Shown here: positions 6,701-58,700 of the stretch, in pieces
Layout of the letters: the number at the start of each line of letters is the position of its first letter
Numbering within the stretch: position 1 is the stretch's first letter
Source of the DNA: a virus
Reading direction: 5' to 3' (one strand)
IMG/VR virus record: IMGVR_UViG_3300023179_000030
Location: 32,001-96,000 of that record
DNA length: 64,000 nt
Made by a program: the position numbers and the translations under genes
The notes under the pieces: model-generated
What the model was told of the DNA's origin: nothing
What the model saw: only the letters and a program-made list of their open reading frames with translations
The model's database searches: none

Positions 6701-8214
6701 TGAGGGCCAGTTGGTCCTTGTGGTCCTTGTGCACCTGTTCCCCCACCTGACCCCGAAGGTCCTTGAGGGCCTTGTGTACCAGTTGGGCCCTGAGGTCCTT
6801 GTGGACCAGTATTACCTATTGGTCCAATTGGACCAGTTGGGCCCTGTGGGCCAGTATTACCTATTGGGCCAATTGGGCCAGTTGGTCCTTGAGGCCCTTG
6901 TGCACCAGTGGGACCTTGTGGACCTTGTGCACCTGTACCCCCACCTGACCCCGAAGGACCTTGTGGTCCCTGTGGACCAGTATTACCTATTGGGCCTTGA
7001 GGGCCTTGTGGTCCCTGTACGCCAGTTCCCTGTGGGCCTTGCGATCCCTGTGGACCAGTTGGACCTTGAGGTCCTTGTACGCCAGTTCCCTGTGGGCCTT
7101 GCGATCCCTGAGGACCAGTTGGTCCTTGTGGTCCTTGTACGCCAGTTCCCTGTGGGCCTTGCGATCCCTGTGGACCAGTTGGTCCTTGTGGTCCTTGTGC
7201 ACCAGTGTTACCTGTTAGACCCTGTGGGCCCTGTGGTCCTTGTACACCTGTATTACCTATTGGTCCAGTTGGACCTTGTGGTCCTTGTGCACCAGTGTTA
7301 CCTGTTAGACCCTGTGGTCCTTGCGATCCCTGTGGACCAGTTGGTCCTTGTGGTCCTTGTGCACCTGTTCCCCCACCTGACCCCGAAGGTCCTTGAGGTC
7401 CTTGTGGGCCAGTATTACCTGTTATTCCTTGTGGCCCTTGGCTTCCCTGCGGACCAGTTGGTCCTTGTGGACCTTGAAGGCCAGTGGGACCTTGAGGTCC
7501 GGTTTGTCCAGTTGGACCTTGACTGCCCTGTGGACCAGTTGGGCCTTGTGCACCGGTAATGCCCGGTGGTCCAACTGGGCCAATAGGTCCAGTTGGACCT
7601 TGTGGTCCTTCATTGCCTAAGGGACCTATTGGCCCTATAGGGCCAGTTGGGCCTTGTGGTCCTTCATCACCTTGTATACCTTGAATACCACGTAAACCTT
7701 GTGGGCCTTGTGGTCCTTGTGCCCCAGCACTATTCTGAACGTCAAACCTAATTGTTTGTGGATTTTGATTGCCATCTAATGTTATGGTGATATTGTCACC
7801 TGCAATAAATTCTACAGTATCCAATCCATGAGCTACTAGATTAGCTGTGCCACCTGGGGTAACCCAATACTTAAAGGTGGAATTCATGGCAATTTTAACT
7901 GCGCCGGCACCTAGATCGAGAACGTCAAAGCCTGACTCAACATCAAACCTTAAAGTATCTACATTTGATATTACATTGCTTGTAACATTGGCATTGTTTA
8001 TCAAGCTGACTGCATTTATCCCACCGGAACCCATTGGTGAACCATTGGAATAGAAAAATCCAGCTGCACTAATATTCCCCGTAGATATCACGGTTTGTGC
8101 AGTCAATGAAGTAATATTTGCTACATTAGTAGTTAGTGTATTGGTGGTTGCAGTATTTAATACAACATTACTATTGCTGGAGATTAGACTACCAGGTACC
8201 TTGGTTAGAGACAT
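790..8214 (-). CDS. Giant collagen-like tail fibre (2474 aa) with beta-solenoid repeats and C-terminal intramolecular chaperone (peptidase S74-like)
   Basis: GPQ/GPT/GPI triplet tract, then many ~14-aa NTTGxxNxAxGxxAL repeats, then SDLRDK...LRPVKFTW...GFIAQEL plus coiled coil typical of S74 auto-cleaving chaperones. TAAATA and AAGGA upstream. Confidence 0.85.
5810..7725. repeat. Collagen-coding 9-bp-period repeat tract with higher-order tandem units (three near-identical 60-bp units at ~7021-7200)
   Basis: Lines starting 7021, 7081 and 7141 are almost identical; ggacc(t/c)tgtgg units throughout; interrupted by a non-collagen insert at ~6170-6410. Confidence 0.95.
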
Positions 8215-29142: not shown

Positions 29143-30891
29143 TCAGTTATATTTCTGATATACCCACAATGTTTGCCCACAATCCCAGATACGATCATAT
29201 CCTCGTTGCTGCATTATTTGCCACTCGGTTAATGATTTATCTGCCCCATCAGCCACTAATTTATGTTTTTGATATTGCAACCTAGAAAATCTATTTTTAT
29301 AATCGGTATAGAAATAACCTGGGGTGATTGACTTTTTTTCAAAACCTAACTTTTGATAAACCACACCTGTTCCCCAACGATTATCGCTATAGCTTAGAAC
29401 AGATTCCGGATTATGTCTTTTTAAAAATTCATTGAATAGTTTACCCGCAGCACCTGGTATATTCAAAGATGAACAAAATCTAATAATTTCCCATTGATAT
29501 TGTTTATTATATCTGGTCCGGGCAAATGTCATAACTGACACTAATTCGTCGTTGTAAGTCAGACCCAGTGAGATGTCGGCAGTGGCTGAACCTTGTAAAT
29601 GGTTTTCAGTTAAAAAATTATGTCTTTGATCTGTACTGCATTCAATTATTTTGCACTTTCTAGCAAACACAGTATTAGCCGTCAAGCCTAGGGCATTTTT
29701 TATTCTAAGTAGTACCGCAGCTTTTTTATATATCCACTCATCTTCGAATATAGTAAGTAATTTAACGCCAGCTTGCTGGCAGCTTAGAAATTTATTAAAG
29801 TGATAATTTCTATCTCGACCTGATGAAGCTTCTGAATGCCAGTATAACCCATTACACTCAATGGCTATTTTTTTGCTGGGAATGTATATATCAAGTTCTA
29901 GTGGTGCTATTAGGGTTCTGTCATTTCTTAAAATATTGTAGTCTGAACCCAACATGTTGGCTAAAGTTTCATATATCTCTGTTTCCAATTTGCTATACCA
30001 GGGAACTTCAAATAGTGTTGAAGCTTGATACTTTTTTGCATATAGATACAATGTATGTGCAGCTATTTGCAATTGTTCCTGCACTTGAGCTCTAGTCTTT
30101 TTATCAATAAAATTTAAAAACTGTTGACGATCACCAAGTATATTCAAGGTAGTTTGGCTTAGGGGTATTTTACTGGCCGCATCAACTCCATATCTATGTA
30201 ATAAAGTTAATTTTCTAAAGTTATTACTTTGTTCAATTTCCACTTTACTTTTATTCGCCAATGTAGTTTTCATTTTGGCAACTATGTTGGCATTTTTTAA
30301 TGGACTAGTAGTTTGATATCTCAATATGTTGGTTTGTTTTATCTTTTCAACTTGTGATTTATTTTGCATGTGGTGCTCTACACCATATTTTTGAATATAA
30401 GTTTGCTTGGTTTTTTCTGCTATACTATTAAGTCGTGATTCAGAAAATTCGGCTCGTGTTTTTTTAATTTTATCTGAAACAGTTGTTGATTGACTGGGCC
30501 AATCAACACCGAATTTTTTTTGATTAGTAGATTTTCGTCGTTGTTCTATATTTGGTATCATTGATACCGCGGTAACCCCATATCGTTGTTTTAGTGTTTC
30601 AGTTTGTTTATTGAGTCTAATAGTTTTAATGCACTGACATTTATTACCCAATACACATCCTGCTCTATAACCAAGATCAAATGTGTTAAACTGACGTTTA
30701 TTTCCAAATTCACAATAAGGAGGTGGACCATTTAAAATGATATACACACGTTCCATGATATTTTTAACTTCGACGTCAGTATATTGTGCATTGACCCAGG
30801 CTAATATTTCAGTATTACGCGATAACCAAGCAGGTAATGTGCTAGATTTGTGAGATGATAACCAAGATTGAATTTGTTCAATATGATGCAT
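29143..30891 (-). CDS. Second free-standing putative homing endonuclease, same architecture as 21435-22940 (start re-assigned to ATG 30891)
   Basis: Repeated K(R)YGV units, ELDIYIPSKKIAIECNGLYWHSE, LLTIFEDEW, FARKC...WEIIRFC...SYSDNRWGTG..Y...IWDCGQ. Confidence 0.75.
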   Translation of the reverse strand: MHHIEQIQSWLSSHKSSTLPAWLSRNTEILAWVNAQYTDVEVKNIMERVYIILNGPPPYCEFGNKRQFNTFDLGYRAGCVLGNKCQCIKTIRLNKQTETLKQRYGVTAVSMIPNIEQRRKSTNQKKFGVDWPSQSTTVSDKIKKTRAEFSESRLNSIAEKTKQTYIQKYGVEHHMQNKSQVEKIKQTNILRYQTTSPLKNANIVAKMKTTLANKSKVEIEQSNNFRKLTLLHRYGVDAASKIPLSQTTLNILGDRQQFLNFIDKKTRAQVQEQLQIAAHTLYLYAKKYQASTLFEVPWYSKLETEIYETLANMLGSDYNILRNDRTLIAPLELDIYIPSKKIAIECNGLYWHSEASSGRDRNYHFNKFLSCQQAGVKLLTIFEDEWIYKKAAVLLRIKNALGLTANTVFARKCKIIECSTDQRHNFLTENHLQGSATADISLGLTYNDELVSVMTFARTRYNKQYQWEIIRFCSSLNIPGAAGKLFNEFLKRHNPESVLSYSDNRWGTGVVYQKLGFEKKSITPGYFYTDYKNRFSRLQYQKHKLVADGADKSLTEWQIMQQRGYDRIWDCGQTLWVYQKYN

Positions 30892-30922
30892 TATATATTT
30901 AGCATTCACCTCGGAGTAGTAA

Positions 30923-33013: not shown

Positions 33014-33068
33014 TTTTTTAACCCTGAGAATTTTGATAAGTATATAACATTATTTATTGGATTTAAAA

Positions 33069-33911
33069 ATGACAGAAGCAACCTCTAACCCGCTATCTAA
33101 ATACTTCAGACAACCACAGATATATATTAAATTACCCAGTGGTGGAGAATGGTGGCCAGCAGGAAGTCTGGATCTCCCAGTAAACAAAGAGATACCAATT
33201 TATGCAATGACTGCAAAAGATGAGCTTTCATTAAAAACACCAGACGCCTTAATGAATGGACAGGCCACTGTTGATATAATTCAAAGCTGTGTCCCCGCTG
33301 TCAAGAATGCTTGGCATACCCCTTCAGTGGATATTGATGCATTGTTGATAGCTATTAGGCAAGCAACCTACGGCAATCGCATGGAGATAGTCAGTGTATG
33401 CCCGCATTGCTCGGCAAAAAATGAAAATGCAGTAGATTTATCTGTTATTCAACATAATTTGTCTTGCCCAGACTTCAAAACACCGGTTTCAGTAGAGGGT
33501 TTAGAAGTTTATTTAAAACCGCAAAGTTTTTTTGATATAAATCAAAGGGGAATCAAAAATTATGAAGAACAAAGGTTATTGAGCATTGTCAGCTCTGAAG
33601 AATTATCCGAAACCGAAAAATTAGAAAAATTTAGTGCTTTATTCAAAAATGTACTCAATTTGACAGTTGCACAAATGGCCATGAATGTTGGGGGCATTAA
33701 AACACCTGAGGGAATCGTTGAAAATAGGCAATTTTTAAATGAGTTCTTTGCAAATTGCGATCGACCAATTTGGAATGCAGTAAGGGACAGAATTGCAAAT
33801 ATAAATGAAACTTCAAGTCTTAAAAATATCCCAATAACCTGCGACAATGATGCTTGTCTTAAAGAGTATTCATCACCACTTCAATTCGAGTTGACAAATT
33901 TTTTCGGTTAA
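33069..33911 (+). CDS. Baseplate hub assembly protein / tail chaperone, T4 gp26-like (start ATG 33069)
   Basis: NPL..YFRQP.IYIKLPS.G, MTAKDE, D.DALL.AIR.ATYG, CPHC and terminal C...C motifs. Confidence 0.7.
   Translation: MTEATSNPLSKYFRQPQIYIKLPSGGEWWPAGSLDLPVNKEIPIYAMTAKDELSLKTPDALMNGQATVDIIQSCVPAVKNAWHTPSVDIDALLIAIRQATYGNRMEIVSVCPHCSAKNENAVDLSVIQHNLSCPDFKTPVSVEGLEVYLKPQSFFDINQRGIKNYEEQRLLSIVSSEELSETEKLEKFSALFKNVLNLTVAQMAMNVGGIKTPEGIVENRQFLNEFFANCDRPIWNAVRDRIANINETSSLKNIPITCDNDACLKEYSSPLQFELTNFFG
33896..33905 (+). other. Candidate -1 programmed ribosomal frameshift site (A AAT TTT TTC)
   Basis: Two overlapping X XXY YYZ heptamers (A AAU UUU; U UUU UUC) two codons before the gp26-like stop; the -1 frame is open into ORF 33917-34120. 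Confidence 0.6.
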
Positions 33912-33916
33912 GGCTT

Positions 33917-34120
33917 TTGGCTCAAAGCAATGAGGATATAGCAAAAATGCTTGATAACTACGACAAAGAGTCAAAAGCCTTAACAAAATCAATTTTGAAA
34001 TTATGTTTACATATGCATGGTGGTATTACACTAAACGAAGCTTGGGCTATGTCATTTAGTGATAGAAATATTTTAATTGAGTTAATCAATGAGCAGCAGG
34101 AAGCTTCAATGAAATCATGA
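33917..34120 (+). CDS. gp51-like hub assembly module, probably expressed as a -1 frameshift extension of the upstream gene
   Basis: LCLHMHGGITLNEAWAMSFSDR pattern; no convincing RBS; in -1 frame relative to 33069-33911. Confidence 0.6.
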   Translation: MAQSNEDIAKMLDNYDKESKALTKSILKLCLHMHGGITLNEAWAMSFSDRNILIELINEQQEASMKS

Positions 34121-34153
34121 CATACCATTTACTATCATAGACCAATACTATCG

Positions 34154-34229
34154 GGGAAGAGCCTGGCTCTTCCCGCTTCTTCTTGTAATTGCATTCATGC
34201 TTCGCATTTCATGCAATTACCATCGAAGC
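34154..34229. repeat. Two strong inverted repeats (candidate origin/packaging hairpins or bidirectional terminator)
   Basis: GGGAAGAGCC-T-GGCTCTTCCC (34154-34174) and GTAATTGCAT-TC-ATGCTTCGCAT-TTC-ATGCAATTAC (34185-34220), the latter flanked by GCTTC/GAAGC. Confidence 0.75.
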
Positions 34230-34319
34230 TTTTTTATTAATTGGGATTAGCTTTTTTAGATTAATGATTGTGTATAGTGTAACTTTACTATTAGTGGGTG
34301 TTTGGTCTTCTAAAAAGTA

Positions 34320-34670
34320 CCTCATCCAGATTAATTGCCATGATTCGCCTGTTGCCAGGCGAAAAAAAGACTTCATCCGAGTTGTATAGCCATCTATTCA
34401 AAAGAGATTACAAGTTACAACATCATAGCAAAATATTGTAGTTGCGCGGAGGCGGTTGACCGGTACCCCCTACTCTAGCTTCGCGTGTCAACGGTACCCT
34501 AGTAATCCGGAATAGACCCAAATCCTATAAGTTCGGGTTGTATCTGTTTCACAGAGCCCGGACCATTTATACCTTAAGTTAGTATTATCCTGTGGCGTCC
34601 AAGTCCGAATATGGTATCTCACATATCCTCAATGGAGTTGGGTCAAACACCCAACACAATGCCTGATGTT
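34320..34670 (-). ncRNA. Putative large structured non-coding RNA (~350 nt), family unrecognised; boundaries approximate
   Basis: At least seven helices, a GCAA tetraloop and G-U wobbles that work only on the minus strand; more GC-rich than flanks; no credible ORF. Confidence 0.6.
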
Positions 34671-34680
34671 GCTATGCGGT

Positions 34681-35199
34681 TTACATACAAAGAAGTTTAA
34701 CTTTGTCTGCGTTTAACCTAAAAAATTCCTCTTGGCCCATAATGAGCCAGTTTCCATGATGATTTGATTTATATATTAATGAATTTATTTGTGGATTTGA
34801 CGTGGTGTCTGTGTCTGTAAATTGAGCGGCTACAAACGTGCCTTTTCTATTAAACTTCATAAAAATGATATTGAAGTCGCCGGGGTCGGAGACATCCATA
34901 CACTGATTGATCCAATTTTCTAGAACTTTAACTTGCCCTAAAAATAATTGATGAAACGGAAAATCCTTATAGGACTTACATTCGACATTTAACCTGGGAA
35001 AACTTTCCCCGGGAACAATATCACCTTTGCTATGTCGAATCTGCGATTCACTTAGTGAGTCTTTTCTAAATGAGTTTTTGCCCCCTATATAAGCTCCGGA
35101 ATTTTGGACGCGCATAAACGATTCCTTATAGAGATCAGATAAAAATCTCGCAATTTCTCGTTCGAATCCTGAACCTTTGGATTTTTGTGAAGAAGGCAT
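34681..35199 (-). CDS. Holliday junction resolvase-like PD-(D/E)xK nuclease (Hjc-type)
   Basis: KSKGSGFEREIA...GDI...NVECKSY motifs; downstream of gp46/47. Confidence 0.75.
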   Translation of the reverse strand: MPSSQKSKGSGFEREIARFLSDLYKESFMRVQNSGAYIGGKNSFRKDSLSESQIRHSKGDIVPGESFPRLNVECKSYKDFPFHQLFLGQVKVLENWINQCMDVSDPGDFNIIFMKFNRKGTFVAAQFTDTDTTSNPQINSLIYKSNHHGNWLIMGQEEFFRLNADKVKLLCM

Positions 35200-35237: not shown

Positions 35238-37226
35238 TTAATTAGCCATTTCTACATCAGCACTATAAGAAGTAAAACCATTGGATTTAACTACTCGTAA
35301 AATGTTGCTAACTCTACTGACAAGGTCATCTTTGTGGGAAACTAGCCAAATTGACTTATTTGTATCACGACTCATTTTTTTAAGTATAGCCAGTGTATTC
35401 TCTGTGCCATTGGAATCCAAACCATTGTCCACCAGTTCATCAATAAACAATAAATTAATGGGTTGATAAAGGCTTTCCCAAACATCACGGAAGGCCCAAC
35501 TTAAACTCAGCACCAGCCTAGTGGTTTCCCCACGACTTAGATTACCATAATCTAATTCTCGCCCATATTCCTCGATACTTACAGTCAAATCATTTAAAAA
35601 CTTAACTGTGTGAGGTAATCCAATCTTGTCAAGATAATATCCCAAACGTGCATTTAAATAACTTAAATTTTGATCAATGATCTTTTTCCTAATAAAACTA
35701 TCTTTATTTGTTAGTAATTTCAATAAAAATTCTTGATGTTCCTTGAACGTTGTTAAATTATTAATGTGATCGTAGCTAATTTCCTGCAAGGCATATTCTT
35801 TCATCTCAGAGATTTGATCCGCATAGGGGTCGATCTCTTCCTTCTTAGCTTTTAATTGAGCAACTACATTTGCTATACTGCTTTTATGCTCGAATGCATC
35901 TGATTCATTGTCATAATATACCTGCGGTTTTTTTGTTAGCTCACCCATAGACTTCAAAGCATCCTCTAATTTGGCTAAATCATTGGTGGTTTTGGAATTT
36001 TGAAGTTTTGCATCTGCCAGTGATTTTTGTTTGCCTAATAATACTTGCTCTTGTTTTTCGTCATGAAATGCTTGACCGCAACTATGGCAAGTGTGATTTT
36101 CCAAGCTTTGTATCTCTAATTCTAACTTTTTAATATCTTTTTGTTCTCTAGACATATCCAATTTACTGCGACGTATTAGTTCAGTAAGATCTGAAATATC
36201 TTTGGATTTTTGTTTGTAAACAGCTAGATCTTTGTGAGCTTTGAGTTCATTTTCTATATCCAACTTGTTTAACTCATCTAAAGCCAGTGATAAATCTGAT
36301 ATATCCTGTGTGTTCTTTTTACGCCATAGGTTTTGTCTACGTATTAGGGCATCTATCTGTTCAGAAATCCTGGCATTGGAATCTTTGACTGATTTAATCC
36401 TAAAATCTTCTTGGGTGATAGCATCTTTGGTTTCACGATTTTGTTCTTTGAGAATCTCAGATTTTTCACTGAGTAAAGTAATGCCCAGTAATTGTTCGAT
36501 GATATTTCTTTGGTCCAGGGCGCGGAGACCCAAAAATGGCTCAGTGTAAGTGTTGAGAACTACAATATGCTTAAACATATCATAGCTCATATTTAATAAT
36601 CGTTCTATGTCCTGCTGAGTTTCTCTACTATCTCCCTGACTGTTGTCATCTTTGGCTTCTTGTAGTTGATCATTGACATAAAACTTCAATATATTGGGTT
36701 TTCTTCCACGTTCTATTTTATAGTTTATGCCGGAACATTCAAAATCTACAGTGACAAGCATACCTTTGCCATTGGTTCTATTGATTAGATTGTCTTTTTT
36801 AATATTGGTTATAGCATGGCCGTATAGACCATAACATAGCCCTTGTATAAGAGTTGTATTGTGGGATAAGATACCATTAGTATAATATCTATGATCATTG
36901 GAATTTACTGTAATATCAAACATGTTTTCTTCAGTCTCTGATACTACTATGCTAACGACTCGATCTAAACCGCAATCAGTTTGTATATATGATAATGGTT
37001 TGATATTTTTAACAAATATCTCGTTAAAATTTTCATCAAATACAATATGATCGTCTGCACACTCCAATCTTTTGCCAGATTCAGTTATCACAGTCCAGAC
37101 CTGATATGGTATAGTTTTCATTATTTTAGAGATAGGATGCCATCCAGAATCGGTTTCAATCTCTAGATTTTGCAAGTCTACAAAATCTATAATTTTTCTT
37201 GTTACCGTGTCAGAAATTGTATGCAT
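35238..37226 (-). CDS. gp46: gp46/Rad50/SbcC ATPase, C-terminal precursor: 123-aa C-intein followed by C-extein
   Basis: Intein ends YYTNGILSHN/T; extein has Zn-hook CHSC, signature LSRGE, Walker B LLFIDE, D-loop NGLD, H-loop LVSH; AAAGG 7 nt before ATG. Confidence 0.9.
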   Translation of the reverse strand: MHTISDTVTRKIIDFVDLQNLEIETDSGWHPISKIMKTIPYQVWTVITESGKRLECADDHIVFDENFNEIFVKNIKPLSYIQTDCGLDRVVSIVVSETEENMFDITVNSNDHRYYTNGILSHNTTLIQGLCYGLYGHAITNIKKDNLINRTNGKGMLVTVDFECSGINYKIERGRKPNILKFYVNDQLQEAKDDNSQGDSRETQQDIERLLNMSYDMFKHIVVLNTYTEPFLGLRALDQRNIIEQLLGITLLSEKSEILKEQNRETKDAITQEDFRIKSVKDSNARISEQIDALIRRQNLWRKKNTQDISDLSLALDELNKLDIENELKAHKDLAVYKQKSKDISDLTELIRRSKLDMSREQKDIKKLELEIQSLENHTCHSCGQAFHDEKQEQVLLGKQKSLADAKLQNSKTTNDLAKLEDALKSMGELTKKPQVYYDNESDAFEHKSSIANVVAQLKAKKEEIDPYADQISEMKEYALQEISYDHINNLTTFKEHQEFLLKLLTNKDSFIRKKIIDQNLSYLNARLGYYLDKIGLPHTVKFLNDLTVSIEEYGRELDYGNLSRGETTRLVLSLSWAFRDVWESLYQPINLLFIDELVDNGLDSNGTENTLAILKKMSRDTNKSIWLVSHKDDLVSRVSNILRVVKSNGFTSYSADVEMAN

Positions 37227-37361
37227 TGTTTAACCTTTGTCTTTACAATTTTTTCTAGTGTGTTGTTCCAACGCAGCATTGTATAATTCCCCCATGGTTA
37301 ATTCGGTTATTTCCCCTGTTATGGTATTACGTAACCTTACACTAGTGTTTACTCCAACACA
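36858..37361 (-). mobile_element. Split mini-intein in the Walker A motif of gp46 (IntN 43 aa, 37361-37233; IntC 123 aa, 37226-36858)
   Basis: NGTGK|CVGVNT.. block A; ECADDH block B; MFDITV..HRYYTNGILSHN|T blocks F/G. Removal restores GTGK-TT. No endonuclease domain. Confidence 0.9.
37202..37279 (-). pseudogene. 25-codon alternative-frame ORF across the intein split; possible remnant of a deleted endonuclease gene
   Basis: GGGGGA RBS-like run then ATG: MLRWNNTLEKIVKTKVKQCIQFLTR*; overlaps the end of IntN and the start of IntC. Confidence 0.4.
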
Positions 37362-37517
37362 TTTACCTGTGCCATTTTTCGCGCCTGAATCTTCTCCGCC
37401 AAGATCTATGTTTTCACCCAAAACTAAGGTTAGATCGGATCGTTCAAAGTTAACTGCTTGAGTATTGTTACCAATGCTAAGAAAATTCCTAGCAGATAAT
37501 GACTTAATTTTAAACAA
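37230..37517 (-). CDS. gp46: gp46/Rad50 N-terminal precursor: 52-aa N-extein plus 43-aa N-intein (TTG start 37517)
   Basis: (M)FKIKSLSARNFLSIGN...LTLVLGEN...NGTGK is the SMC-family N-terminus; TTG follows the gp47 stop by 1 nt with AGGA upstream. Confidence 0.88.
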   Translation of the reverse strand: MFKIKSLSARNFLSIGNNTQAVNFERSDLTLVLGENIDLGGEDSGAKNGTGKCVGVNTSVRLRNTITGEITELTMGELYNAALEQHTRKNCKDKG

Positions 37518-37518
37518 A

Positions 37519-38535
37519 TTACAAGTTCCTATAAATGTCCAATAACAAATTGTTATCAAAATGATCGCTATTAATGGCAGTGAGCTGCTCTGTTACAATT
37601 TGATCAACACTTTGAAATACAATATTTCCCTGTATTTCGTATTTTTCCAAATCTGTATTTTTTTGAGGTATCAAGGCAATCTCTCTAATTTTGTAGTCAG
37701 ATATAAATGTCTCTTTGATAAAATTGGCTTCTTCGTAACTGATGTCTATATCCAAGTTTACACGTACATGCATACCTGGTTTCAATACAGTTTCTGGGCT
37801 AGCCAATATTGCTCCAAGGCCCAGTACCCTATATACCGGTTGTTCTGGCCAAGAATGAAATACGGGATCCTGCCCCCATTCCAAAATCATCATACCTCGT
37901 TCATCGTCGCCGGCGTCAGCATAGTTATGTGGGAAACAATTTCCAATATACGTAATATTCTTATTTTGTTGCCGTTTATGGAAATGACCAGTGAATACAT
38001 GATCAAAATGCCCAAAATGCTCACGTTGTATTTCACCATGATCTGGCATTGCAACCATGGCATTCATATAAAAGTGTGGTAACTCAAAATGGCCAAACAT
38101 ATATTTACCATTGAGTTTTGGTATACGTTTATGATCGTCGCCCACCAACCAAGGCGCAATGACTACATCTCCCTGGGAAAACCAATCATTACAAATCTGT
38201 ACATTTGGTAAGTGTTTGGCCCATTCCACACTTTGAACATCACGTTTGTCTCGGTAGTAGAGGTCGTGGTTGCCGGGAATAAAGAATACTTGATCAAAAT
38301 TGTCGTTTAAATGTTCTAGAGCTTTTAAGCTATAATTCAAGGTCAAAATGTTTATCGAAGCTCGATTATTATGATAATCGCCTAAAAACAAACAGGTTTC
38401 ACAGCCCAGAGATTTTGCTTTGGCAGTGGCCCAACGAATAAAATTCCAACAGTCCTCATTGTGTTGAATACTATTAGACTTTAAACCAAAATGTATGTCG
38501 GTAAAAACTGCTGCTTTTTTGAATAGATTACTCAT
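37519..38535 (-). CDS. gp47: gp47/Mre11/SbcD nuclease (start ATG 38535)
   Basis: Metallophosphoesterase motifs DIH, GDYH, GNHD, GHFE, GHFH; adjacent to gp46. Confidence 0.92.
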   Translation of the reverse strand: MSNLFKKAAVFTDIHFGLKSNSIQHNEDCWNFIRWATAKAKSLGCETCLFLGDYHNNRASINILTLNYSLKALEHLNDNFDQVFFIPGNHDLYYRDKRDVQSVEWAKHLPNVQICNDWFSQGDVVIAPWLVGDDHKRIPKLNGKYMFGHFELPHFYMNAMVAMPDHGEIQREHFGHFDHVFTGHFHKRQQNKNITYIGNCFPHNYADAGDDERGMMILEWGQDPVFHSWPEQPVYRVLGLGAILASPETVLKPGMHVRVNLDIDISYEEANFIKETFISDYKIREIALIPQKNTDLEKYEIQGNIVFQSVDQIVTEQLTAINSDHFDNNLLLDIYRNL

Positions 38536-38541
38536 TGTCTT

Positions 38542-38570
38542 ATTATAGTGAAGATGGCTGAACAAGTCTA
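38542..38570 (-). promoter_or_regulatory. Sigma70-type promoter of gp47, probably giving a leaderless mRNA
   Basis: TAGACT-N17-TATAAT-AAGACA-ATG. Confidence 0.65.
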
Positions 38571-38588: not shown

Positions 38589-39464
38589 TTAATCCTCATC
38601 TGAATAACCTCCACCTGAACTCATACCCTGCCTTGTATATGATGGATTTAAACCAGCCATTTCAAGTATATCATCACGTAAATTCTGATTGCGCTTTTCT
38701 ATGTTAAGCACTCGGGTAAAAGAATTTGTCAAAGCAGCAGTATAATAAGCAAATGGATTTTGGCTCTTACTTTCATCAAATTGCAGCCCAATTTGGCACA
38801 ATTGCACTAAGGCTTGCGATCTCATCTCGTCATTATATGTATAACCTCTCCAGTTACTGCGAGTAGCATATCTCTCACAGAGTTTCATAAACATAAGTGC
38901 TAGCTTTTTAGTCATACTGCCATGATCTCTACTAAATTCACCAGTGTGCAAACCCCCTCGCCAGTGGCTTTTTCCAACCATAATGGGTTCATTGTTTTCC
39001 GTCACCCGGTAATGTAAAAATGGTGGAAAATTAACCTTTACGTATTTGTTATGTTTGGGGTCTTCTTCATCATATTCGGTATGGGCCAGTTCTTCTTCAT
39101 CTTCATAAAGTTCCTTGGCCGTATCCCTGGCCTTTCGGGTTTTTATGTCATCTAAAGGTATATGCTCCCAGGTCATGACTCTAAAAACTACTTCAGAGGG
39201 TAAAATCTTGCTGATTTTAATTTCAAAATCTGATTGCTTTTGTTTAGTACCGGTTTCTAAAACCGCATTATCATAGGCCACTTTGCTCAAACGCTCAGCT
39301 CTGAGCTTTCTGCCTGCTAGTATAGTTTTTTTATTGATCTCACTGACATCATTGATGATAATATCATAATCGGCATCCAGTGGGTCTGAATATGAGCAAT
39401 AGGAATTTTTACTTTTGTGAATTTCTTTCAAAATATCTTTGTTGTTTAAATAATTGATTCTAAT
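38589..39464 (-). CDS. gp55: Late-transcription sigma factor, T4 gp55-like (probable ATT start at 39464)
   Basis: NYLNNKDILKEI N-terminus; NWRGYTYNDEM...QFDESKSQNPFAYYT...NSF.R.L..EK motifs; gp55-gp47-gp46 synteny. Confidence 0.8.
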   Translation of the reverse strand: MRINYLNNKDILKEIHKSKNSYCSYSDPLDADYDIIINDVSEINKKTILAGRKLRAERLSKVAYDNAVLETGTKQKQSDFEIKISKILPSEVVFRVMTWEHIPLDDIKTRKARDTAKELYEDEEELAHTEYDEEDPKHNKYVKVNFPPFLHYRVTENNEPIMVGKSHWRGGLHTGEFSRDHGSMTKKLALMFMKLCERYATRSNWRGYTYNDEMRSQALVQLCQIGLQFDESKSQNPFAYYTAALTNSFTRVLNIEKRNQNLRDDILEMAGLNPSYTRQGMSSGGGYSDED

Positions 39465-39487
39465 TTTGAATCTCCTTGAGTTTTTTA

Positions 39488-39516
39488 ATAATAGCAATTA
39501 AGAACTAAAATGTCAA
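39488..39516 (-). promoter_or_regulatory. Near-consensus sigma70 promoter of the late sigma gene
   Basis: TTGACA-N17-TATTAT on minus strand. Confidence 0.75.
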
Positions 39517-49730: not shown

Positions 49731-52700
49731 ATGCCAACTACTAAAACATCACCACTACTGCCATCGGTCTTTCAGACTGTAACAAACCAAAAGTTCTTAA
49801 ATGCAACCCTGGATCAGCTGGTTACTGAACCCAATTTAAAACCACTAAACGGTTATGTTGGTAGGAAATTTGCTCCGGGTTTCTCCAGCATTTCGGACTA
49901 TGTGCGTGAACCAGATGCTGCTCGAGCAGATTACCAATTAGAACCCAGCGTTGTGGTCAAAAATACCAATACCGCAGAGGTTGAGTTTCACGTAACCTAC
50001 CCTGAAGTATTGCAGAAAATAAATTATTATGGGGGTAATATAGCAAACCCTGGTCACCTATGGTCCAGCGAATATTATAGCTATACCCCTCACATAAATT
50101 TAGACGCATTTATAAATTTTGGTCAATATTATTGGTTGCCCAATGGGCCAGATTCCGTGCCTGTTATAAGTAACCTAGTAGAATTAGAAAAAACATTTTA
50201 TGTATATCCTGATTCAGGCCTGTCCACATATAATCTAAGTGGATTTGGTACAATATCCAATCCCGACTTGGTATTGACACGTGGTGGAACCTATAAATTC
50301 ATTGTCAATCAAACAGGCAAACCTTTTTGGATACAAAGTGATCCTGGAATTTCTGGCTTGCAAACGTCTAGTAATAACTTATCTAGTAGAGAAATATTGG
50401 GAGTTACAAATAATGGAGAAGATGCAGGCACAGTGACTTTTACTGTTCCAGATAAAACAGCCCAGGATGTTTATATCTCCTTGCCTGTTGTGGATAGCAT
50501 TGACCTAGTAACTACATTGAAGTATTCTCAGATACAGGGCCAATTACTTAGTACTTTAAACACTACTTATGGTGGCATTGATGGGCAAACTTCTAATTTG
50601 AATAATAAGTTGATGGTATTTGGTACTTATTATGCAAATTCTTCAGACTGGACAGCAAACAGTATAACTGTTCCAATTAATCAGAGATATGACATCTGGA
50701 GAATTCAATTGACACCTGTGGGCAGCGATTTTACCGTATCATTAGTATACGTTCAAGATATTCCCATGGTCAATAAAGTAATAGTACAATCAGGCAATAC
50801 TTATGCAAATACTCAGTGGTTTAAAAACGGCAGCGAGTATCTTGAAATAGTTCCCAATATAACTGCAAATTTAGATACACTATATTACCAAGATGGTGTT
50901 AACCCTGGTCAATTTGGTGTAATAAAAATAGTTGATGCAGGCGCTAACATATTAAATGTTACAACTGAAATTCTGGGCAAGCAAAACTACATTAGTCCCA
51001 ATGGCATAAAATTTACCAATGGTTTGAAGGTTAAATTTGATTCAGATGTGATCCCTGCAAAATATCAAAATTCGGAATTTTATGTTGAGGGGGTGGGGGA
51101 CGCCATTACCTTAACTGCGGTCAATGATTTGATAGTTTCTTTCTCTGGGTCAAGGTCGAATTTTGACCCAACGTCGCGCTTCTTGCAAGCTGCCACCAGT
51201 GCAAATTTGAATACTACTAAAACTGAACTAGTGATAACTACTACCGATGTACCAGATGGCACTTCGGTTAAACATGGAGTATTCCCCAATACATCTAATA
51301 CAAATTATATTGTTGAACAAACCTTGGTGTTAACTTACCCATATCGTGGTGGGCTAAATTCTATTGGGGAGCATACCAGCACCACCTTGACTTCTGACCC
51401 AATTGGTGTCACAGTACCAGGCATTTTAATAAATGGTGTCAGCAATCAATGGTATGTGCCGGGCCAAAATGGCAGCACATGGCATTATGATGCCGAACAA
51501 GTTTTAATAAACGGTGAAGATATCTATGGCGGATCTACCGGTGACGCTGGTGATTATCATTATAGAAGCAGTAAATTTATAACAGCCAATGCTTGGGGTA
51601 GTTTAACTGGATTTACCAGTGGTTACACTGAAACAGATGGCCACAGTAAGTTAATTGGTTTTGCGGCAGACGGATATCCTATATATGGGCCATATGGATA
51701 TGCCAATGCCAATAGTTCATTGGGTGGTGTAACGAGAATGACTAGTTCATACACTGCATCAAATACTGGTGCTTACCGGCCAGTTAGTAAAACCGTTACG
51801 GTTACCACTGGAACTACAGGAAATATAATAGTTGTTTCCAGCACCGTGGGTCTGAATCCCGGCATGCGTATCACAATCAATGATGCAGGTATAACCTCTG
51901 GCTCAGTCTGGATACTTAACAATGGGTTGCATACCGCTGTGGGCCCCAGCTTGTTTACAGCAGGTGCCACACAAGTGTTATTGAGTTCAAACGTCACTGT
52001 TACAGCAGGTGCATCATTGACTTTTGAATTTCTGGCCGGTGCATTTATAGAGGATTATACTTATGTACCGGGCTCGGGTACTCTGGACCAATTCAATGGT
52101 AGATACGGAGTAACACCAGACTTTCCCAATAAAACATATGCTTACTTTGCTACAGTTGATACACTGGGCAATCCTGTATATCCATATTTTGTTGGGCAAT
52201 CTTTTTATGGGAGTTTAGAGGCAGATATAAACACAAGTTTATTAGAACCTGACTATATAATTTCTAATAGGTCAAGCACAGATTTGAATCCCTGGAGCAG
52301 ACGTAACCGTTGGTTCCACAGCGATGTTATCTCAATTTCCAATCAATACAATAAAACTACTGCAATACTGGATCAAAACTACAGAGCCAAACGGCCAATT
52401 ATTGAATTCAATCCAAATCTACAGATGTACGATTTTGGAAAACGTGGTCTTGCCCCAGTGGATTTATTTGACACCACAATAACTCAGCCATTTATTGATA
52501 TAGAAGGTGCCTCTAGTTATTATATAGATGATATTAACTTATTCGATGGCATGCGAATTATTTTTGCAGCCGATGCCGACCCACTGACCAGAGGTAAAAT
52601 TTGGGTAGTTAATTTCATTGATGTAGTGGGAACCTCTACATCAGACCCAACTATAATACATTTAACTCTGGCCGACGACGGAGATGTACAGGATAATGAC

Positions 52701-55700
52701 ACTGTCAGTGTGTTCAATGGCTCTAACAATGGTAAAAGCTTTTGGTATCATGATTCACAGTGGGACGAAGGTCAAGCTAAAACTGGTTTAAACCAGGCGC
52801 CTAAATTTGATGTATTTGACAACGAAGGGGTAAGTTTCAGCGACTTAACCAAGTATCAAATAAACAACAATAGTCTAGCATTTACTGGTACAAAGTTGTT
52901 TAGCTACAAGTTGGGCACTGGCAGCGATGATCCGGTCTTGGGTTTCCCACTGAGCTACAAGAATTTTAATAATATTGGGGATATTTTGTTTGAGAACAAT
53001 TTTGATGTTGACACGTTCTCCTACAGAGTTAACTCAGTGGACTATACCAGCAATGTCAATTTGGGATTTTTGCACCGAAATAACAGTGATTCTACCACTA
53101 CCAAATTAAATGTTTGGACTACTGTGGTGGAAGACAGCAAGCAATACCAGGACATATCCTATATCTATGATGGAATAAACAACGAATTTTTGATAGATGT
53201 AAGCCCACAACCAACAGCAACCATACCTAATTTAAAAGTCTATGTTAATTTTAATTTATTGAAGACTGCTGATTATCAAATTTATAATTTGTCGGGGTCC
53301 AATAAAAATATCGCCATAGATAAAACATTAATCAAGGACGGGGATAAAATAGATATATTGGTCTACAGTGAAGAAATAAGCAAAATTGGCTTCTTTGAAA
53401 TTCCCAGTAACTTGAACTTAAATGCTCAGAATACAGTATTGTCCACACCAACATTGGGGGAATTGAGAAACCACATAAGCAAGCTTACACAAAATTCTGT
53501 GTTATTTTCAGGCACATACCCTGGCGCAAGTAATCTCAGGGATATTAATGTAGAAGCGCAGGGCGGTACGATGCTGCAACAAAGTTCACCAACTAGTTTA
53601 GCTTCACTGTTCCTAACTGACGATTCAATGAATTTTGTCAATAGTTTAAATTCTGCATCTCAGGAGTACACTAGATTTAAAAATAAATTTATCACTACAG
53701 CAAGTCAAAGTAACTTAATAGATTACTCAAACCCAGTGGACTCTGTTGACCTAATTATTAAACAGATTAATCAAGTTAAAAACAAATCATTTCCTTGGTT
53801 TTACAGTGATATGGTGCCACACGGCGATAACAAAAACACCATTACTTATACTGTTTATAATACTTTATTGACTAACTATGAAATAACCAATGTATTTTCT
53901 AATACTGAATTAAGTAATCAAGCCTGTTTGGTTTATCTAAATGGAATTCAGCTTTTATACGGAATTGATTATACATTTTTAACTACTGGGCCAGGTGTGC
54001 AATTGACCAGTCAAGTGTCATTAACAGTGGGAGACGTTATAACTATTGTTGAATACAATGACACAGATGGAAATTGGATTCCTGAAACTCCTACAAAATT
54101 GGGACTATACCCAAAGTTTACTCCCAAGTTATATGTTGATTATACATATCTAACTCCACAAACAATGATACAGGGTCACGATGGTAGTCTAACTCCTGCA
54201 TTTGGTGATTTCCGTGACGATTTGATTTTAGAATTAGAAAAAAGAATTTACAACAATATCAAATCTAATTATGATTTTAAGTCATTTAATATATTTGACA
54301 GCAAGCCTGGAAAATTCAGAGATACAGGATACAGCCAATCAGATTTTAATAACATTGTGGCCAAGGGTTACTTGCCCTGGATAGGATTCAATAGATTAGA
54401 CTATAGCACTAACAGCACCTATGATAGCACAAACGCATTTACCTTTAACTATAGCAAAGCGTTAGATGTCATCGACGGTAAACAATTGCCGGGATCATGG
54501 CGTGCGTGTTTTGAATATTTCTATGATACTCAACGTCCCAATACTAACCCCTGGGAGATGTTGGGTTTCAGTGAGCAACCTGAATGGTGGGAGGAAACCT
54601 ATGGGCCAGCCCCATATACTTCAGGAAATCTTGATTTGTGGACAGATTTGCAAAATGGGTATATTGCCGGAGGCGATCGTGCTGGTATTGATACTAAATT
54701 TGCACGACCTGGGTTATTAAGCATTATTCCAGTAAATGAAAATGGTCAATTAATACCCCCTCAGGGATTGTTAACGTCCAAATATAATACCAGTGATTTC
54801 AATAGAAACTGGGCAGTTGGGCAATACAGCCCCACTGAAACTGCTTGGCGAAACTCCAGTGAATATCCGTTTGCGGTGCAATTGATGATGGCGCTTACTC
54901 AGCCCGCAAAGTATTTTGCATTAGCTGCAATGCCTGACAAATATCGTTATAATTCTGAACTGAAACAGTATTTAAATACTGAAACTAATAGAAGATTAAA
55001 TCAGTCTGACATCGTAATCAACGGTGATTTTGACTCGGGTATAATTTCACGTAGTGCAGGGTATATTAATTGGATTGGGGATTACCTAACTACGCTGGGT
55101 ATAACATCCAAGGCAAATTTAAAACACTATATCTCTGACTATACAATACAGTTGTCATATAGAATGGCGGGATTCAGTGGTAAACAATATCTAAAAGTAT
55201 TGGCCGAGCAAAATAGCCCTAATAGTATCAATGAATCGATTTTGATACCTGACAGTGATTTTGATTTAATATTAAACAAGTCTACCCCTGTATCAAATCC
55301 TAGATATAGTGCGGTGATAGTGGAAAAAACAGCTACAGGTTATAAACTCAGTGGTTACGATAATCGAAACCCTTACTTTACAGTGGTGCAGCCAGCGATT
55401 ACTGGTGATTATAAAGTTATTGAAGTATTGTCTTCTTCAGTTAACTACTATACTACCTTTACTAACTATAAAGTAAGTATACCCTATGGTACTGAATTTG
55501 CCAATGTACAACAGATTGCTGGGTTTTTGGCAGGATATGAGAGATATCTAATAGCTCAGGGATTTAGATTTGACTATTATGATTCTGATTTGGGTCAAAT
55601 TCGCAATTGGGAATTGAGTATAAAAGAATTTATGTTCTGGCAGAAGCAGAATTGGCCAGTATCCAGCATACTTGTACTGGGCCCCGCAGCTGATATAATT

Positions 55701-58700
55701 ACTCTATCAAATACAAATGCAGCAGTAGACGAAATAATGAATTCATACTATGGCAGCAAAATAATGACTCAAAATTTTGTGGTCTTAGATTCTGACTCCT
55801 ATAGTGTGTTGCGTGACGGTAACGTTTTTAGGGTTAATCTAGACACCAAAAACGGCGACCTAATTGCGTTTGCTGATTTTAATTTGGTTCAATACGAACA
55901 TGTTTTAATTTGCAATAATAAAACTCAATTTAACGATGTTATCTACGATCCGGCAATGGGTCAACGACAATTCCGACTAAAATTGGTGGGAGCAAAAACT
56001 GGCGGCTGGACTGGTACATTGACCCCTGAGGGTTATATGTATAACAAGCCCGGAGTTCCATCATGGAGAGCTGCTACCGACTATTTGCGTGGTGACCTAA
56101 TAGAATATAAGAATTTTTACTATACAGCTATTGCAGATATACCCGGCACAACAGATTTTAACTCCAATAATTGGTTACCTGTGGATAAAAACAAAATTAA
56201 ATCTGGGTTACTCAACAATTTAGCAACCAATGCAGGCGCGGCGGTTAATTTTTATGATACTGATATAGTTAATTTAGAATCCAAATTTGATTTGTATAGT
56301 TTAGGACTAATAGGGTATAGAAATCGTAGCTATTTAAATGACCTTGGGTTAGATGACACCAGTCAAGTTAAATTTTATCAGGGCTTTATTAAAGAAAAAG
56401 GCACACTAAATGCCATTGATGCCTTGGGTAAAGTCAGTTTTACTGGGCAAGACAGCAATGTTGAGATATCAGAAAAATGGGCATTTAGAGTTGGCAACTA
56501 TGGCAGTTTGGGTACTAATCAATTTGTAGAAATGGTACTCGATGAAAACTACGTTTTAAATAATCCAACTAGTTTAGCGGTACTGAGCAATAATACTGTA
56601 GTTTATTCATCAATATATAGTGATGATACTGCCTTGTTCAAAACTTCTGAATCAAATTGGGCTCCGCCTTTTCTACTGAATCGAAACAGCAATAGTAATC
56701 GCAGCGATGATATTCAGACTGCAGGATTTGTGAATATCGACGACGTAGACTATACTGTCTTTGATCTTAATGATACCGCATCATTGAGTACGGACATAAG
56801 CAACATAGGAGTGGGGTCCATTATATGGGCCGCCAAGGATTATACCCAAAAATGGAATGTTTTTAGAGTCAATGAGAATCAAACCAATGTCATTGAGATT
56901 TACAATGGGTTAGACAATAAATTGTTGATGGTTACTGATACCCCTCACTCTTTAAGTATTGATGATGCAATAGTTATTAATAATGCTGACACATTTAATG
57001 GCTTTTATAGAGTGCAGACAGTTGAATCACAGACCACATTTACCGTGTTGTATTCTGGGTCTCTGACTGGATTTAGCACTGTGACCTTATTGTGTCCGTT
57101 GTATAAATTAAGCAGTCTACGTGTAAAATATGCCAGCGACATTACCTCATTGCCAATGTCTACCCCAGGCTGGCAAGATGATGATAAAGTTTGGGTGGGG
57201 GAAGATTCATCAACTGTAGAATGGGCAGTGTATAATAAGTCATCTCCCTGGGCTGCACAATCTGCACTACCACGTGGCGCAATATATAGCAATGACAAAT
57301 TTGGTTCTACAGTGGTATTGAGTTTAGATAATAACTTTGCGGCTGCTGGTGTTCCGGGTTTCAGTTCCAATGTAGGAGCTATTGTAAATTACGTAAGAAC
57401 TGTGTCTGGAGATCTATTGGAGGACCAAACATTTGTTTCATTGGCCAATGCCACAGTGAACATGGGTTCAAGTTTAGCCAATGGTAACAAATATTTAATA
57501 ACCGGTGCACCAGGCAGCTCAACAAACCGCGGCTATGCATTTGTGTACAATCGTTCAACTTCTGGTCAATTAACACCATATCAAATTTTGACCACAAGTT
57601 CAGCATCCAGTGGAAAATTTGGTTACAGTGTAGCCATAAGTAAAGATGATCAATGGGCATTTGTTGGATGCCCAGGTACTGATACTGTTGCAGTCTACGG
57701 ATTTGACTCAACTATAAGCACAGTAACACAGACTATTATTGCCAATGGTGTACTGACATCTTTCGCCCTGTCATTTACTCCGGCCAGCGCTGAGCTTCTT
57801 TATGTGTCGTCATCATTGACTTCTTATGTACCCTATGTTGATTATACTATAACAGGCTCCACCATAGTATTTTCTACTGCTCCTGCAGCATCTAGTATTG
57901 TGATAAGACAACGAGCCGGCTTTAAGTATTTTACCACAATTTCCTATTCTGGAACTGGCAGCAATTTTGGCTTTAGTCTAGCATGTTCAACAGAAGGTGC
58001 TCAGGTTGTAATAGGTGCGCCATTGGCCACCGTTACGTATAATTCAACCCCACTAACTAAGTCAGGCTCAGTTATTGTATATAATAGGTCAGTGGATAAT
58101 TTTATAGCCATAGCAAATCAAACTATATTTGGCGGCTCTACTATATCTTTGACTAATTTTAACAAAGTCTATATAGATGGAGTATTAAAAACTATAGCAG
58201 TTGATTATATAATAGCGGCGTCAACTAAAGTGCAATTCAATACTCCGCTGACCGCTGGGCAAGTGGTTACTATTGAAACTAACTCATTCAATCGAATTGG
58301 TGAGTACACCCCCAAGGTTCCCACTGCGCTGAGCCAATTTGGCTACAGTGTTGATATATGTCCAAATAACTGTAGTGTATATATTGGAGCACCATACAAG
58401 TCAACTACCAAATATTTTACAGGATCTGCATATAGGTTTTTAAATCAGGGCAGAGTCTACGGTACTATAACTGGTACTGTTAGTAACCCAACTGTTAACA
58501 GTGGAGATTCTATACGTATTAATAATTTTGAAGTGGTCTTCACTACAACATCATTGGGATCGGTAGTAAATGCTATCAATGCCACCCTAATACCTGGAGT
58601 CACTGCATCAGCAGTAAATGGCTATTTGAAATTAGATAGCATATCAACTTTGTCAGCTGATAAACTTAGGATATTACCTGGTGTTGGCAGTGCGATTACA

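Follow-up and report, generated by a model that had tools for sequence, protein, structure and literature searches.

A folded RNA downstream of a resolvase gene

What is encoded behind the resolvase gene of an uncultured phage, at the point where two of its gene units run towards each other? The locus belongs to the IMG/VR virus record IMGVR_UViG_3300023179_000030 (126 kb), of which we analyzed a window of 64,000 nucleotides (nt), positions 32,001 to 96,000 of the record; all positions below are those of the window. The element in question sits between a minus-strand unit (sigma factor, gp47, gp46 and resolvase) and a converging plus-strand baseplate unit. A preliminary description made from the letters alone had placed here an unrecognised structured RNA of about 350 nt, in the only long gap free of open reading frames (ORFs). 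The statement about the gap is roughly true, but part of its 769 nt (33917-34174) is otherwise occupied, by a plus-strand small ORF and a terminator-like hairpin. The minus strand of 34321-34663 encodes a real, heavily structured RNA of ~345 nt. These ends, from helix P0 to the second of two heptamers, are the limits of conservation in the alignment A2 described below, and an nhmmer profile of the RNA covers 34320-34665.

Folded as a single sequence, the minus strand reached -103.4 kcal/mol against -93.3 +/- 4.75 for its shuffles (z = -2.13), and the plus strand gave z = -1.54. Single-sequence folding alone is too weak for a claim of RNA, and the weight comes from the relatives, which were aligned with nhmmer and MAFFT. 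A2 is the MAFFT alignment of 64 distinct full-length sequences, on which we scored a structure written down by hand with 14 helices and 73 pairs including a pseudoknot (4562 cells). Pairing was found in 87.0% of the cells, against 73.1 +/- 0.3% after shuffling (0 of 500 shuffles reached the observed value) and 36.9-46.1% when the partners were slid by 1-3 columns. Covariation among homologues, the check named with the first proposal, is present: changes on both sides of the pair were compensatory in 57 of the 73 pairs, and the covariation score was 0.376, compared with 0.148 for the shuffles and at most 0.118 for slid partners. The cells with G-U (483, 10.6%) were in large excess over those with A-C (85, 1.9%), indicating that the structure belongs to the transcript of the minus strand. 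The RNA is thus co-oriented with the sigma-gp47-gp46-resolvase unit, as had been proposed. Helices P2, P3, P5 and P8 were recovered independently by RNAalifold on a smaller alignment. Where ORFs overlap the RNA, their ends are ragged and their composition is odd, and the small ones on the plus strand are not conserved; on these grounds a coding role was rejected for either strand.

Architecture of the element

The seven helices of the preliminary description were all found in the sequence where it had put them; P0, P2, P4, P9 and the twin heptamers were absent from its list. All features are given on the minus strand, starting from the 5' end. P0 (GGC/GCC, 34661-34663 and 34594-34596) closes a junction with P1, P2 and P3; it is 99.0% paired and all three pairs covary. 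P1 (GUUGGGU/ACCCAAC, 34649-34655 and 34637-34643) covaries in 7 of 7 pairs, although it is paired in 60% of the cells. P2 (34633-34636 and 34598-34601) is 99.6% paired. P3 (GGAUAUG/CAUAUUC, 34622-34628 and 34607-34613) is supported by the A2 counts, with 99.2% pairing at the base of the stem and 71.6% in the inner pairs. The low scores of P1 and inner P3 arise because MAFFT misaligns one clade. The hairpin P4 (AUAC/GUAU, 34569-34585) has a conserved loop UAACUUAAG, is 83.5% paired and shows both-side changes in 4 of 4 pairs.

The hairpin P5 (34531-34563) contains a conserved internal loop GGC-UCUGUGAAA.AGAUACAA-CC and an inner 3-bp helix that is 99.5% paired. The stem proposed here before (CGGG..UCUG/CAGA..CCCG) holds in its outer part, CGGG/CCCG; the inner UCUG/CAGA is specific to the window, and the family has a 3-bp UGU/ACA helix in its place. 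One P5 position was found as GC 21, UA 20, AU 17 and CG 6 times in A2, and the highest mutual information of the whole RNA was between model columns 108-134 and 109-133 of this hairpin. P6 (34500-34527; AUUUGG/CCGGAU in the window) is a long hairpin of variable sequence, also supported by the counts, with 82.6% pairing and both-side changes in 10 of 10 pairs.

The center of the RNA is an H-type pseudoknot (34448-34492). It had been suspected from GUUGAC/GUCAAC and a G-run, and the relatives bear it out: P7 (GUUGAC/GUCAAC, 34487-34492 and 34455-34460) is 99.7% paired and P8 (GGGGGU/GCCUCC, 34465-34470 and 34448-34453) 100%, with compensatory changes in each. The column pairs 180-209 and 198-220, high in mutual information, also mark it. 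Within the pseudoknot lies a near-invariant stretch, GGUAC.G..CAACCGCCUC. Two GGUACC palindromes, to which attention had been drawn, are not kept as such; the relatives mostly have GGUUCC as the first copy and GGUACA or GGUACC as the second. The phage of the window is contained in DNA runs of lake and other freshwater metagenomes; no RNA run was listed for it, which carries no information on expression. The contigs of runs with this phage break at 34447-34482. This part of the pseudoknot was assembled as a separate piece of 36 bases, with a depth of 68.3 in run X1 and 40.7 in run X2. The depth summed over 34451-34477 was 424 against 56 nearby in X1, and 190 against ~15 in X2. The excess of depth together with the contig breaks indicates that co-occurring relatives evidently share the 36-nt stretch letter for letter.

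P9 (AGAG/CUCU, 34473-34476 and 34403-34406) encloses P8 and the variable hairpin P9a; it is 95.3% paired and covaries in 4 of 4 pairs. P9a (34432-34440 and 34416-34424), the UACAAUAUU/GAUGUUGUA pairing noted before, is present as a hairpin in all relatives with variable sequence and length. Its columns were taken from locus L100, with 79.8% pairing and 4 of 4 pairs covarying. The 3' part begins with repeat 1 (34372-34382), made of the box ACUC (34379-34382) and the heptamer GGAUGAA (34372-34378). It ends with repeat 2 (34321-34331), made of the box AUCU (34328-34331) and the heptamer GGAUGAG (34321-34327). Between the repeats stands P10 (34344-34363), a GC-rich hairpin UUCGCCUG-GCAA-CAGGCGAA already proposed and in agreement with the A2 counts (89.1% paired, four pairs with both-side changes), whose G-U pairs occur on the minus strand only. 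Conservation at the 3' side extends beyond a model of 220 nt, down to 34321. A further stem enclosing repeat 1 ('P10a') was dropped, being inconsistent across clades.

Two heptamers that remain identical to each other

The 3' module consists of two similar units flanking the GC-rich P10, in the order box-heptamer, hairpin, box-heptamer. Each unit is composed of NUGRCY, a spacer of 4-7 nt, a pyrimidine box (ACUC in unit 1, AUCU in unit 2) and 7 nt. The two heptamers were identical to each other in 125 of 131 distinct sequences, and 15 different heptamers were found. The commonest are AGAUGAU (25 sequences) and GGAUGAA (24), and other matched ones include GUCGGAA, ACGAAAU, AUAGCAG, AUGAAGA and AAAGAAU. 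The window is one of the six exceptions, its GGAUGAA and GGAUGAG matching at 6 of 7 positions. Mutual information, computed over 153 distinct sequences, also marks column pairs that hold the same letter instead of complementary ones: 264/316 (GG 68, AA 64, mixed 5), 268/320 (GG 100, AA 34, mixed 0) and 270/322 (TT 78, AA 44, GG 6, mixed 4). The bases flanking the heptamers differ systematically between the units (ACUC against AUCU), which rules out a recent or plain duplication and also a simple conversion tract. The spacing of the repeats was 51, 52 and 54 nt in three sequences counted by hand, and the unit between the heptamers contains start-like and stop codons. Direct words of 7 nt that are kept identical while the word itself drifts are an unusual evolutionary signal, one that covariation tools based on complementarity would overlook.

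The units could be read by the ribosome, either as mini-ORFs (RUG ACY ... NGA URA) or as a take-off and landing pair for ribosome hopping. In the bypass of T4 gene 60 matched sites lie ~50 nt apart across a hairpin, and the matched sites of the phage RNA, at a similar distance around P10, resemble that coding gap. Both are found in phages of the T4 kind, and a stop codon comes after GGA in the common heptamers. In the consensus each unit has an intact frame from its RUG up to a stop within the heptamer, where the common words have UGA or UAA at positions 4-6, and the preceding codon is matched. However, in many sequences the frames are lost through insertions and deletions of 1-2 nt (unit 2 of the window is 1 nt short), and many second units meet an earlier in-frame UAA. 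Six heptamer pairs have no stop at positions 4-6 (GUCGGAA, ACGAAAU, AAAGAAU, AUAGCAG, AUGAAGA and the mismatched AGCGAAU/UGCGAAG). Besides, a ribosome that had landed would meet the same stop codon immediately, there is no conserved ORF leading into or out of the module, and the identity covers 7 nt instead of the one codon of gene 60. Translation is largely refuted by the frames, and we regard it as extremely unlikely.

Another possibility is that the element acts as DNA, the identical direct cores of 7 bp around a palindrome being sites of recombination, slippage or replication origin, including the primer or R-loop role contemplated in the preliminary description. In the overlap regions of tyrosine recombinases the partner sites must be identical while their sequence is free, a rule that the heptamers resemble, and recombination genes (the resolvase and the gp46/47 nuclease) are the neighbours. 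Against this, G-U pairing is confined to one strand, in P10 as in the remainder, and no inverted arms around the heptamers were seen by eye. No contig joint across the repeats was found in four DNA runs, where contigs drop rare variants, and the hairpin unit is present in all aligned relatives whose contig covers the site. We consider an element of this type very unlikely.

Distribution and gene order in related phages

A protein search of IMG/VR gave 538 relatives of the resolvase, of which we retrieved the best 80 loci. The DNA just 3' of the resolvase could be aligned at the nucleotide level in many of these relatives, though the resolvases were 55-64% identical as proteins. With a 19-letter pattern from the most conserved stretch we found at least 120 further stretches, and the iterated nhmmer profile matched 171 of the 200 IMG/VR phage loci fetched, in addition to the window. 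The RNA was single-copy in 4 of 4 genome records examined, and the genomes of two relatives with the RNA are complete, at ~346 kb. No DNA match to the RNA was found in the GenBank collection of cultured phages, in which the gp46 segment alone was matched, in 11 records of Pseudomonas jumbo phages. Among bacterial genome contigs, of the at least 120 pattern matches two of those listed fit the profile, one on a 4.4-kb contig of a metagenome-assembled genome, and the rest look like chance. As far as the matches listed show, the sequences point to a phage RNA. A large RNA gene supported by covariation is added to the conserved gene set of a group of uncultured freshwater phages.

The typical order is gp47, gp46, optional inserts, resolvase, RNA and convergent genes, with other neighbours in ~8 loci. 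The convergent genes are a pair resembling gp51 and gp26, which in some loci is preceded by a DUF6614 gene and two more. No co-oriented conserved ORF was found 3' of the RNA; the conserved genes downstream are encoded by the opposite strand, both in the window and at nearly all loci. Since these genes are convergent, the RNA is not the 5' leader of a downstream gene. A riboswitch or cis-regulatory leader, which calls for a co-oriented gene directly downstream, was rejected for the same reason.

The location is also the one expected for a folded 3' untranslated region that shields the mRNA of the recombination operon against 3' exonucleases, or keeps convergent late transcription away from it. 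The RNA stands at the 3' end of the minus-strand unit and faces a plus-strand unit with a terminator-like hairpin (34154-34174), and no promoter of its own was detected. On the other hand, its conservation is far above the needs of a stabiliser, including as it does the near-invariant 36-nt stretch common to co-occurring phages. The RNA also stays in place in ~12 relatives despite an unrelated ORFan gene inserted between it and the resolvase. A role in cis would also leave the identity-locked heptamers unexplained. Such a 3' element seems to us quite unlikely. The roles offered in the preliminary description (primer or R-loop RNA, cofactor of the recombination nucleases, ribozyme) are guesses, and the RNA is tied to the nucleases by neighbourhood only.

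Twenty-three of the loci derived from the resolvase had no profile match, and about 20 of them were inspected by eye. Behind the resolvase they too have long non-coding stretches, of other types, and Rfam gave no match in seven of these loci. One type (L034, L044, L049, L055, L058; ~4504-4950) ends, by eye, in a module of box-heptamer, hairpin and box-heptamer; in L034 its heptamers are ACAUGAA and ACAUGAU, and L058 has ACAUGAUG in both positions. The other type, longer than 450 nt (L053, L062, L065, L071, L075; ~4500-5000), shares with P2/P3 of the window a UUGAG...GAUCU junction and contains a strong hairpin flanked on either side by GGCAAUGU or GGCAAGU, again by eye. Just downstream of this second type, ~+430 to +510 nt past the resolvase stop, two copies of AAAGAUUAA, ~70 nt apart, surround two strong hairpins (L071, L067, L070, L074, L076, L079). 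This pair could be due to chance in AT-rich sequence, or it could be a second arrangement of repeat, hairpin and repeat.

Relationship to known RNA families

Rfam gave no match in the window at the gathering score, and the seven matches with E <= 10 over 33900-34900 were not relevant. The preliminary description could not place the RNA among tRNA, tmRNA, RNase P, introns or small ribozymes, and we found no match to these models either (Rfam at E <= 10; ARAGORN, 0 genes in the window). A group I intron was rejected: there was no Intron_gpI match at E <= 10, the pseudoknot strands are 16 nt and 2 nt apart on their outer sides, and the resolvase has its own stop. Known small self-cleaving ribozymes (hammerhead, twister, HDV-like, pistol, hatchet and others) had no Rfam match at E <= 10. 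A CRISPR mini-array or RNA anti-CRISPR was discarded as well: 7 nt only are identical, against repeats of ~28-37 nt, and the would-be spacer is a conserved, covarying hairpin. A sub-threshold match to CRISPR-DR16 lies elsewhere in the gap (34103-34148, E = 9).

The core could still process itself, as a ribozyme or as the substrate of a structure-specific RNase. Cuts after ACUC and after AUCU would trim the 3' end of the operon and free a hairpin RNA of ~50 nt. The near-invariant pseudoknot core has the size of a ribozyme, and the RNA is located where the operon transcript ends. There are three similar pyrimidine boxes (AAUCUCU, ACUC and AUCU) with which the conserved AGAGUA can pair, and P9 is highly paired and covaries. 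Yet no ribozyme model of Rfam matches at E <= 10, the boxes are almost invariant, so that the AGAGU pairing is beyond the reach of covariation, and cleavage alone leaves the identity of the heptamers unexplained. Self-processing appears unlikely.

Approximately half of the profile matches begin at model position ~150-170. In these the space between resolvase and core is filled by a known motif, Polynucleobacter-1 (RF01718). It was found directly 5' of the core in locus L127 and in 19 of 20 further loci of the sister clade, the exception being cut by the end of its contig. The scores in the sister loci were 81.7-120.3 bits, for a gathering score of 37 bits. In L127 the resolvase ORF ends at 569 and RF01718 covers 569-702; the core of the sister clade lies within ~60-90 nt after the motif. 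No RF01718 match was found in L001 and L092 at the gathering score, and membership of the window was rejected, with no match at 37 bits or at E <= 10. The proposal of a novel non-coding RNA stands, then, in that no family matches in the window, and is qualified in that the same 3' core follows RF01718 in the sister clade.

In Weinberg et al. (2010, PMC2864571) Polynucleobacter-1 appears only as a table entry, classed as probably an RNA and probably a cis-regulator, from Burkholderiales and fresh water. It resembles the RNA of the window in its freshwater origin and phage context, and in the sister clade it starts after the same resolvase gene. It differs in that its Rfam model (141 nt) does not include the core, and the 5' domain of the window (P0-P5) gives no match to it. 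While the table of that paper (PMC2864571) has it as a probable cis-regulator, the downstream genes here are convergent. The window agrees with the core definition in having P7/P8 with the near-invariant stretch, P9, and the box-heptamer, hairpin, box-heptamer module, its heptamers agreeing at 6 of 7 positions. Judged from the sequences, the loci share a single RNA family in which the 3' core (pseudoknot, P9 and twin-heptamer module) is constant and the 5' domain (P0-P6 in the window, where it is an undescribed one) can be exchanged. In the 20 phage loci tested, Polynucleobacter-1 is thus only the 5' domain of a larger phage RNA, whose constant part, previously not modelled, is a pseudoknot plus two units around a hairpin.

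Full-text searches of the literature gave no description of the RNA, although the supplementary tables of PMC10690425 may contain it. That study (2023) reports more than 10,000 candidate phage RNAs, and passages of it mention candidates upstream of resolvase and RusA genes. What appears to be new here is the core of pseudoknot and twin heptamers together with the 5' domain of the window, and what was already known is the orphan motif Polynucleobacter-1. To our knowledge, an identity-locked pair of heptamers is no feature of RNAs of the GOLLD and ROOL type. These are, like the present one, large RNAs of many helices, often phage-borne and discovered by comparison, according to the portion available of 10.1101/2024.12.08.627333. 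The phage RNA differs from them in having no Rfam match, a smaller size (~345 nt) and a fixed place in the genome.

A possible trans-acting RNA or template for strand transfer

Self-processing, a 3' element in cis, a DNA site and translation either do not explain the matched heptamers or are each partly contradicted. Our preferred reading, advanced tentatively as a good possibility somewhat short of probable, is a stand-alone RNA or ribonucleoprotein acting in trans, with the pseudoknot as scaffold and the twin heptamers as two copies of a lineage-specific address. Action as a stand-alone molecule, and not as the leader of a downstream gene, is suggested because there is no co-oriented gene downstream. 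The invariant pseudoknot would be the scaffold or binding core of a stable RNA or ribonucleoprotein. The two purine-rich heptamers would each pair with a complementary pyrimidine-rich 7-mer, in two sites or in two molecules, giving a specificity of 2 x 7 nt. Read-through from the upstream operon is the probable source of the RNA, since a search of the minus strand gave no promoter-like site and conservation among relatives does not extend upstream of P0; the RNA may be trimmed afterwards.

Several results weigh against this trans-acting reading. One is that same absence of a promoter-like site on the minus strand, where it was looked for. Another is that no complementary partner of the heptamers was found, either within the RNA or in the fetched loci. 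Besides, a target tolerant of G-U wobble would not need the G/A flips to be matched in both copies. The last is the limited weight of a result in its favour, the changes counted on a FastTree tree of 107 rows, made from the core without the heptamer columns. Heptamer position 1 had 24 and 25 changes in repeats 1 and 2 (2 of 107 rows disagreeing), position 5 had 14 and 14 (0 of 107) and position 7 had 17 and 17 (5 of 107), but the tree is short and weakly resolved, with 6, 3 and 3 independent pairs on supported branches, and the counts are inflated because repeats ~50 nt apart are subject to linkage and recombination. The identity argument rests mainly on the 15 matched words and not on the tree counts.

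The search for a partner was extended in several ways. Within the RNA, no third column covaries with the heptamers by mutual information, and complements of 5 or 6 letters are no commoner than for the heptamers of other lineages, with a weak excess at the P3 stem. The pairing of repeat 1 with repeat 2 given by RNAalifold ('P11') was rejected, since its best-pairing combination at columns 264/316, A264/G316, is never seen. No complement was found at a fixed offset within +/-1.5 kb, and recurrent matches ~156-164 nt upstream proved to belong to unvarying sequence of the Polynucleobacter-1 region. In 152 whole fetched loci (several kb per side) there were 96 sites complementary to the own heptamer against 74 +/- 7 in controls. 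This excess was rejected as a target, as it is due to a single constant ATCATCC site in the DUF6614 gene that does not covary. Homologous sites in four genome records gave 0 covarying of 26 comparisons, at a low power that did not recover the sites of the RNA itself either. The 126-kb record contained no further copy of the repeats or of their complement.

A rule in which identity is required and the sequence is free is the signature of a copied strand that re-anneals. This leads to a different mechanism: a polymerase would copy the ~50-nt unit, the nascent strand from repeat 1 would re-anneal on repeat 2, and a product of tandem repeats would result, the pseudoknot being the scaffold of the polymerase. 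The 125 identical pairs in 131 sequences, with 15 words, fit such a template jump. So do the failure to find an internal complement to the heptamers and the position of the repeats, which bracket the hairpin and adjoin the pseudoknot. The logic is that of telomerase templates, the R repeats of retroviruses and the DRT2 non-coding RNA. Against it, no reverse transcriptase of the RVT_1 family (PF00078) was found in any of 6 records, that of the window and those of five relatives (two of them 99-100% complete), where divergent polymerases would escape. The spacing of the repeats varies, the start-like and stop codons of the unit leave no neo-like ORF, and no need for a product like this is known in such phages. 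The phage RNA has thus the matched direct repeats ~50 nt apart expected of a template RNA of the DRT2, DRT10 or telomerase type, and not the cognate reverse transcriptase gene. On balance a template jump of this description seems improbable. Taken more broadly, that the heptamers are donor and acceptor of a strand transfer, the RNA being copied by a jump across the hairpin, or rejoined, in virulent jumbo phages with no recognisable reverse transcriptase, is a reading that we likewise judge rather unlikely.

The closest parallel is DRT2. Passages of a preprint (bioRxiv 10.1101/2024.05.08.593200) describe matched ACA-1 and ACA-2 motifs next to a stem-loop and a loss of defence when the homology of the motifs is disrupted; in part of another source (PMC12039810) the DRT2 RNA is called pseudoknotted. 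Judged by these sources, DRT2 shares with the phage RNA a pseudoknot, short direct repeats that match each other and a segment bounded by a stem-loop between them. There are also differences. DRT2 is bacterial and encoded beside its reverse transcriptase, whereas the phage RNA has none in the six records. The repeats of DRT2 are conserved and of 3 nt, those of the phage RNA of 7 nt and free to vary. Its unit is of 120 nt and free of stops, that of the phage of ~50 nt and with stops.

Should re-annealing or dual addressing be the reason for the identity, the RNA would be programmable by design, testable and potentially useful. If the strand-transfer reading were true, it would be a new class of phage RNA machine, an identity device like those of telomerase and DRT2, and it would give the first functional handle on Polynucleobacter-1, an orphan motif for 16 years.

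Neighbouring genes

The minus-strand unit starts with a late sigma factor of the gp55 type (38589-39497) and continues with an SbcD/gp47-like nuclease (37519-38565) and an SbcC/gp46-like protein in two ORFs, of 109 aa (37230-37559) and 662 aa (35238-37226). Both of these ORFs match phrog_77. The larger one has a sub-threshold Pfam match to intein splicing at residues 65-123 (E = 0.0012, 19 bits against a cut-off of 35.8 bits). The arrangement in two ORFs could be a split gene, a frameshift or the remnant of an insertion. The last gene is the PDDEXK_15/RusA-like resolvase of 172 aa (34681-35199), whose stop codon is 17 nt ahead of P0. On the plus strand there are a T4-type baseplate-hub gene, gp26-like (33057-33911), the small ORF of 67 aa (33917-34120) and the terminator-like hairpin already mentioned.

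In many relatives there are inserts between gp46 and the resolvase, absent in the window. They code for radical SAM enzymes (one with SPASM), a dCMP/cytidine deaminase and a short-chain dehydrogenase; examples of inserts are L129:4769-6337, L188:4183-5145, L111:148-1449, L003:3382-3870 and L149:3879-4487. ORFan genes of ~270-380 aa adjoin the RNA in a subset of the phages, at either side and in either orientation (for instance L032:4513-5517, L161:640-1677, L098:2376-3179, L153:1262-2110 and L182:3723-4853). Four of their five clusters have no Pfam or PHROG match, and the fifth matches an unnamed PHROG only. One neighbour of the RNA, L177:1854-2483, has matches to the NUMOD3 motif and to a homing-endonuclease PHROG. 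The spot adjacent to the RNA looks like a hot spot of insertion.

Two genes away from the RNA in the window, an ORF of 588 aa (29143-30909, minus) matches a homing-endonuclease/HNH PHROG (phrog_3339, E = 1e-116) and DUF7487. The window also contains very long ORFs, of 4335 aa (49731-62738, plus) and 2474 aa (790-8214, minus).

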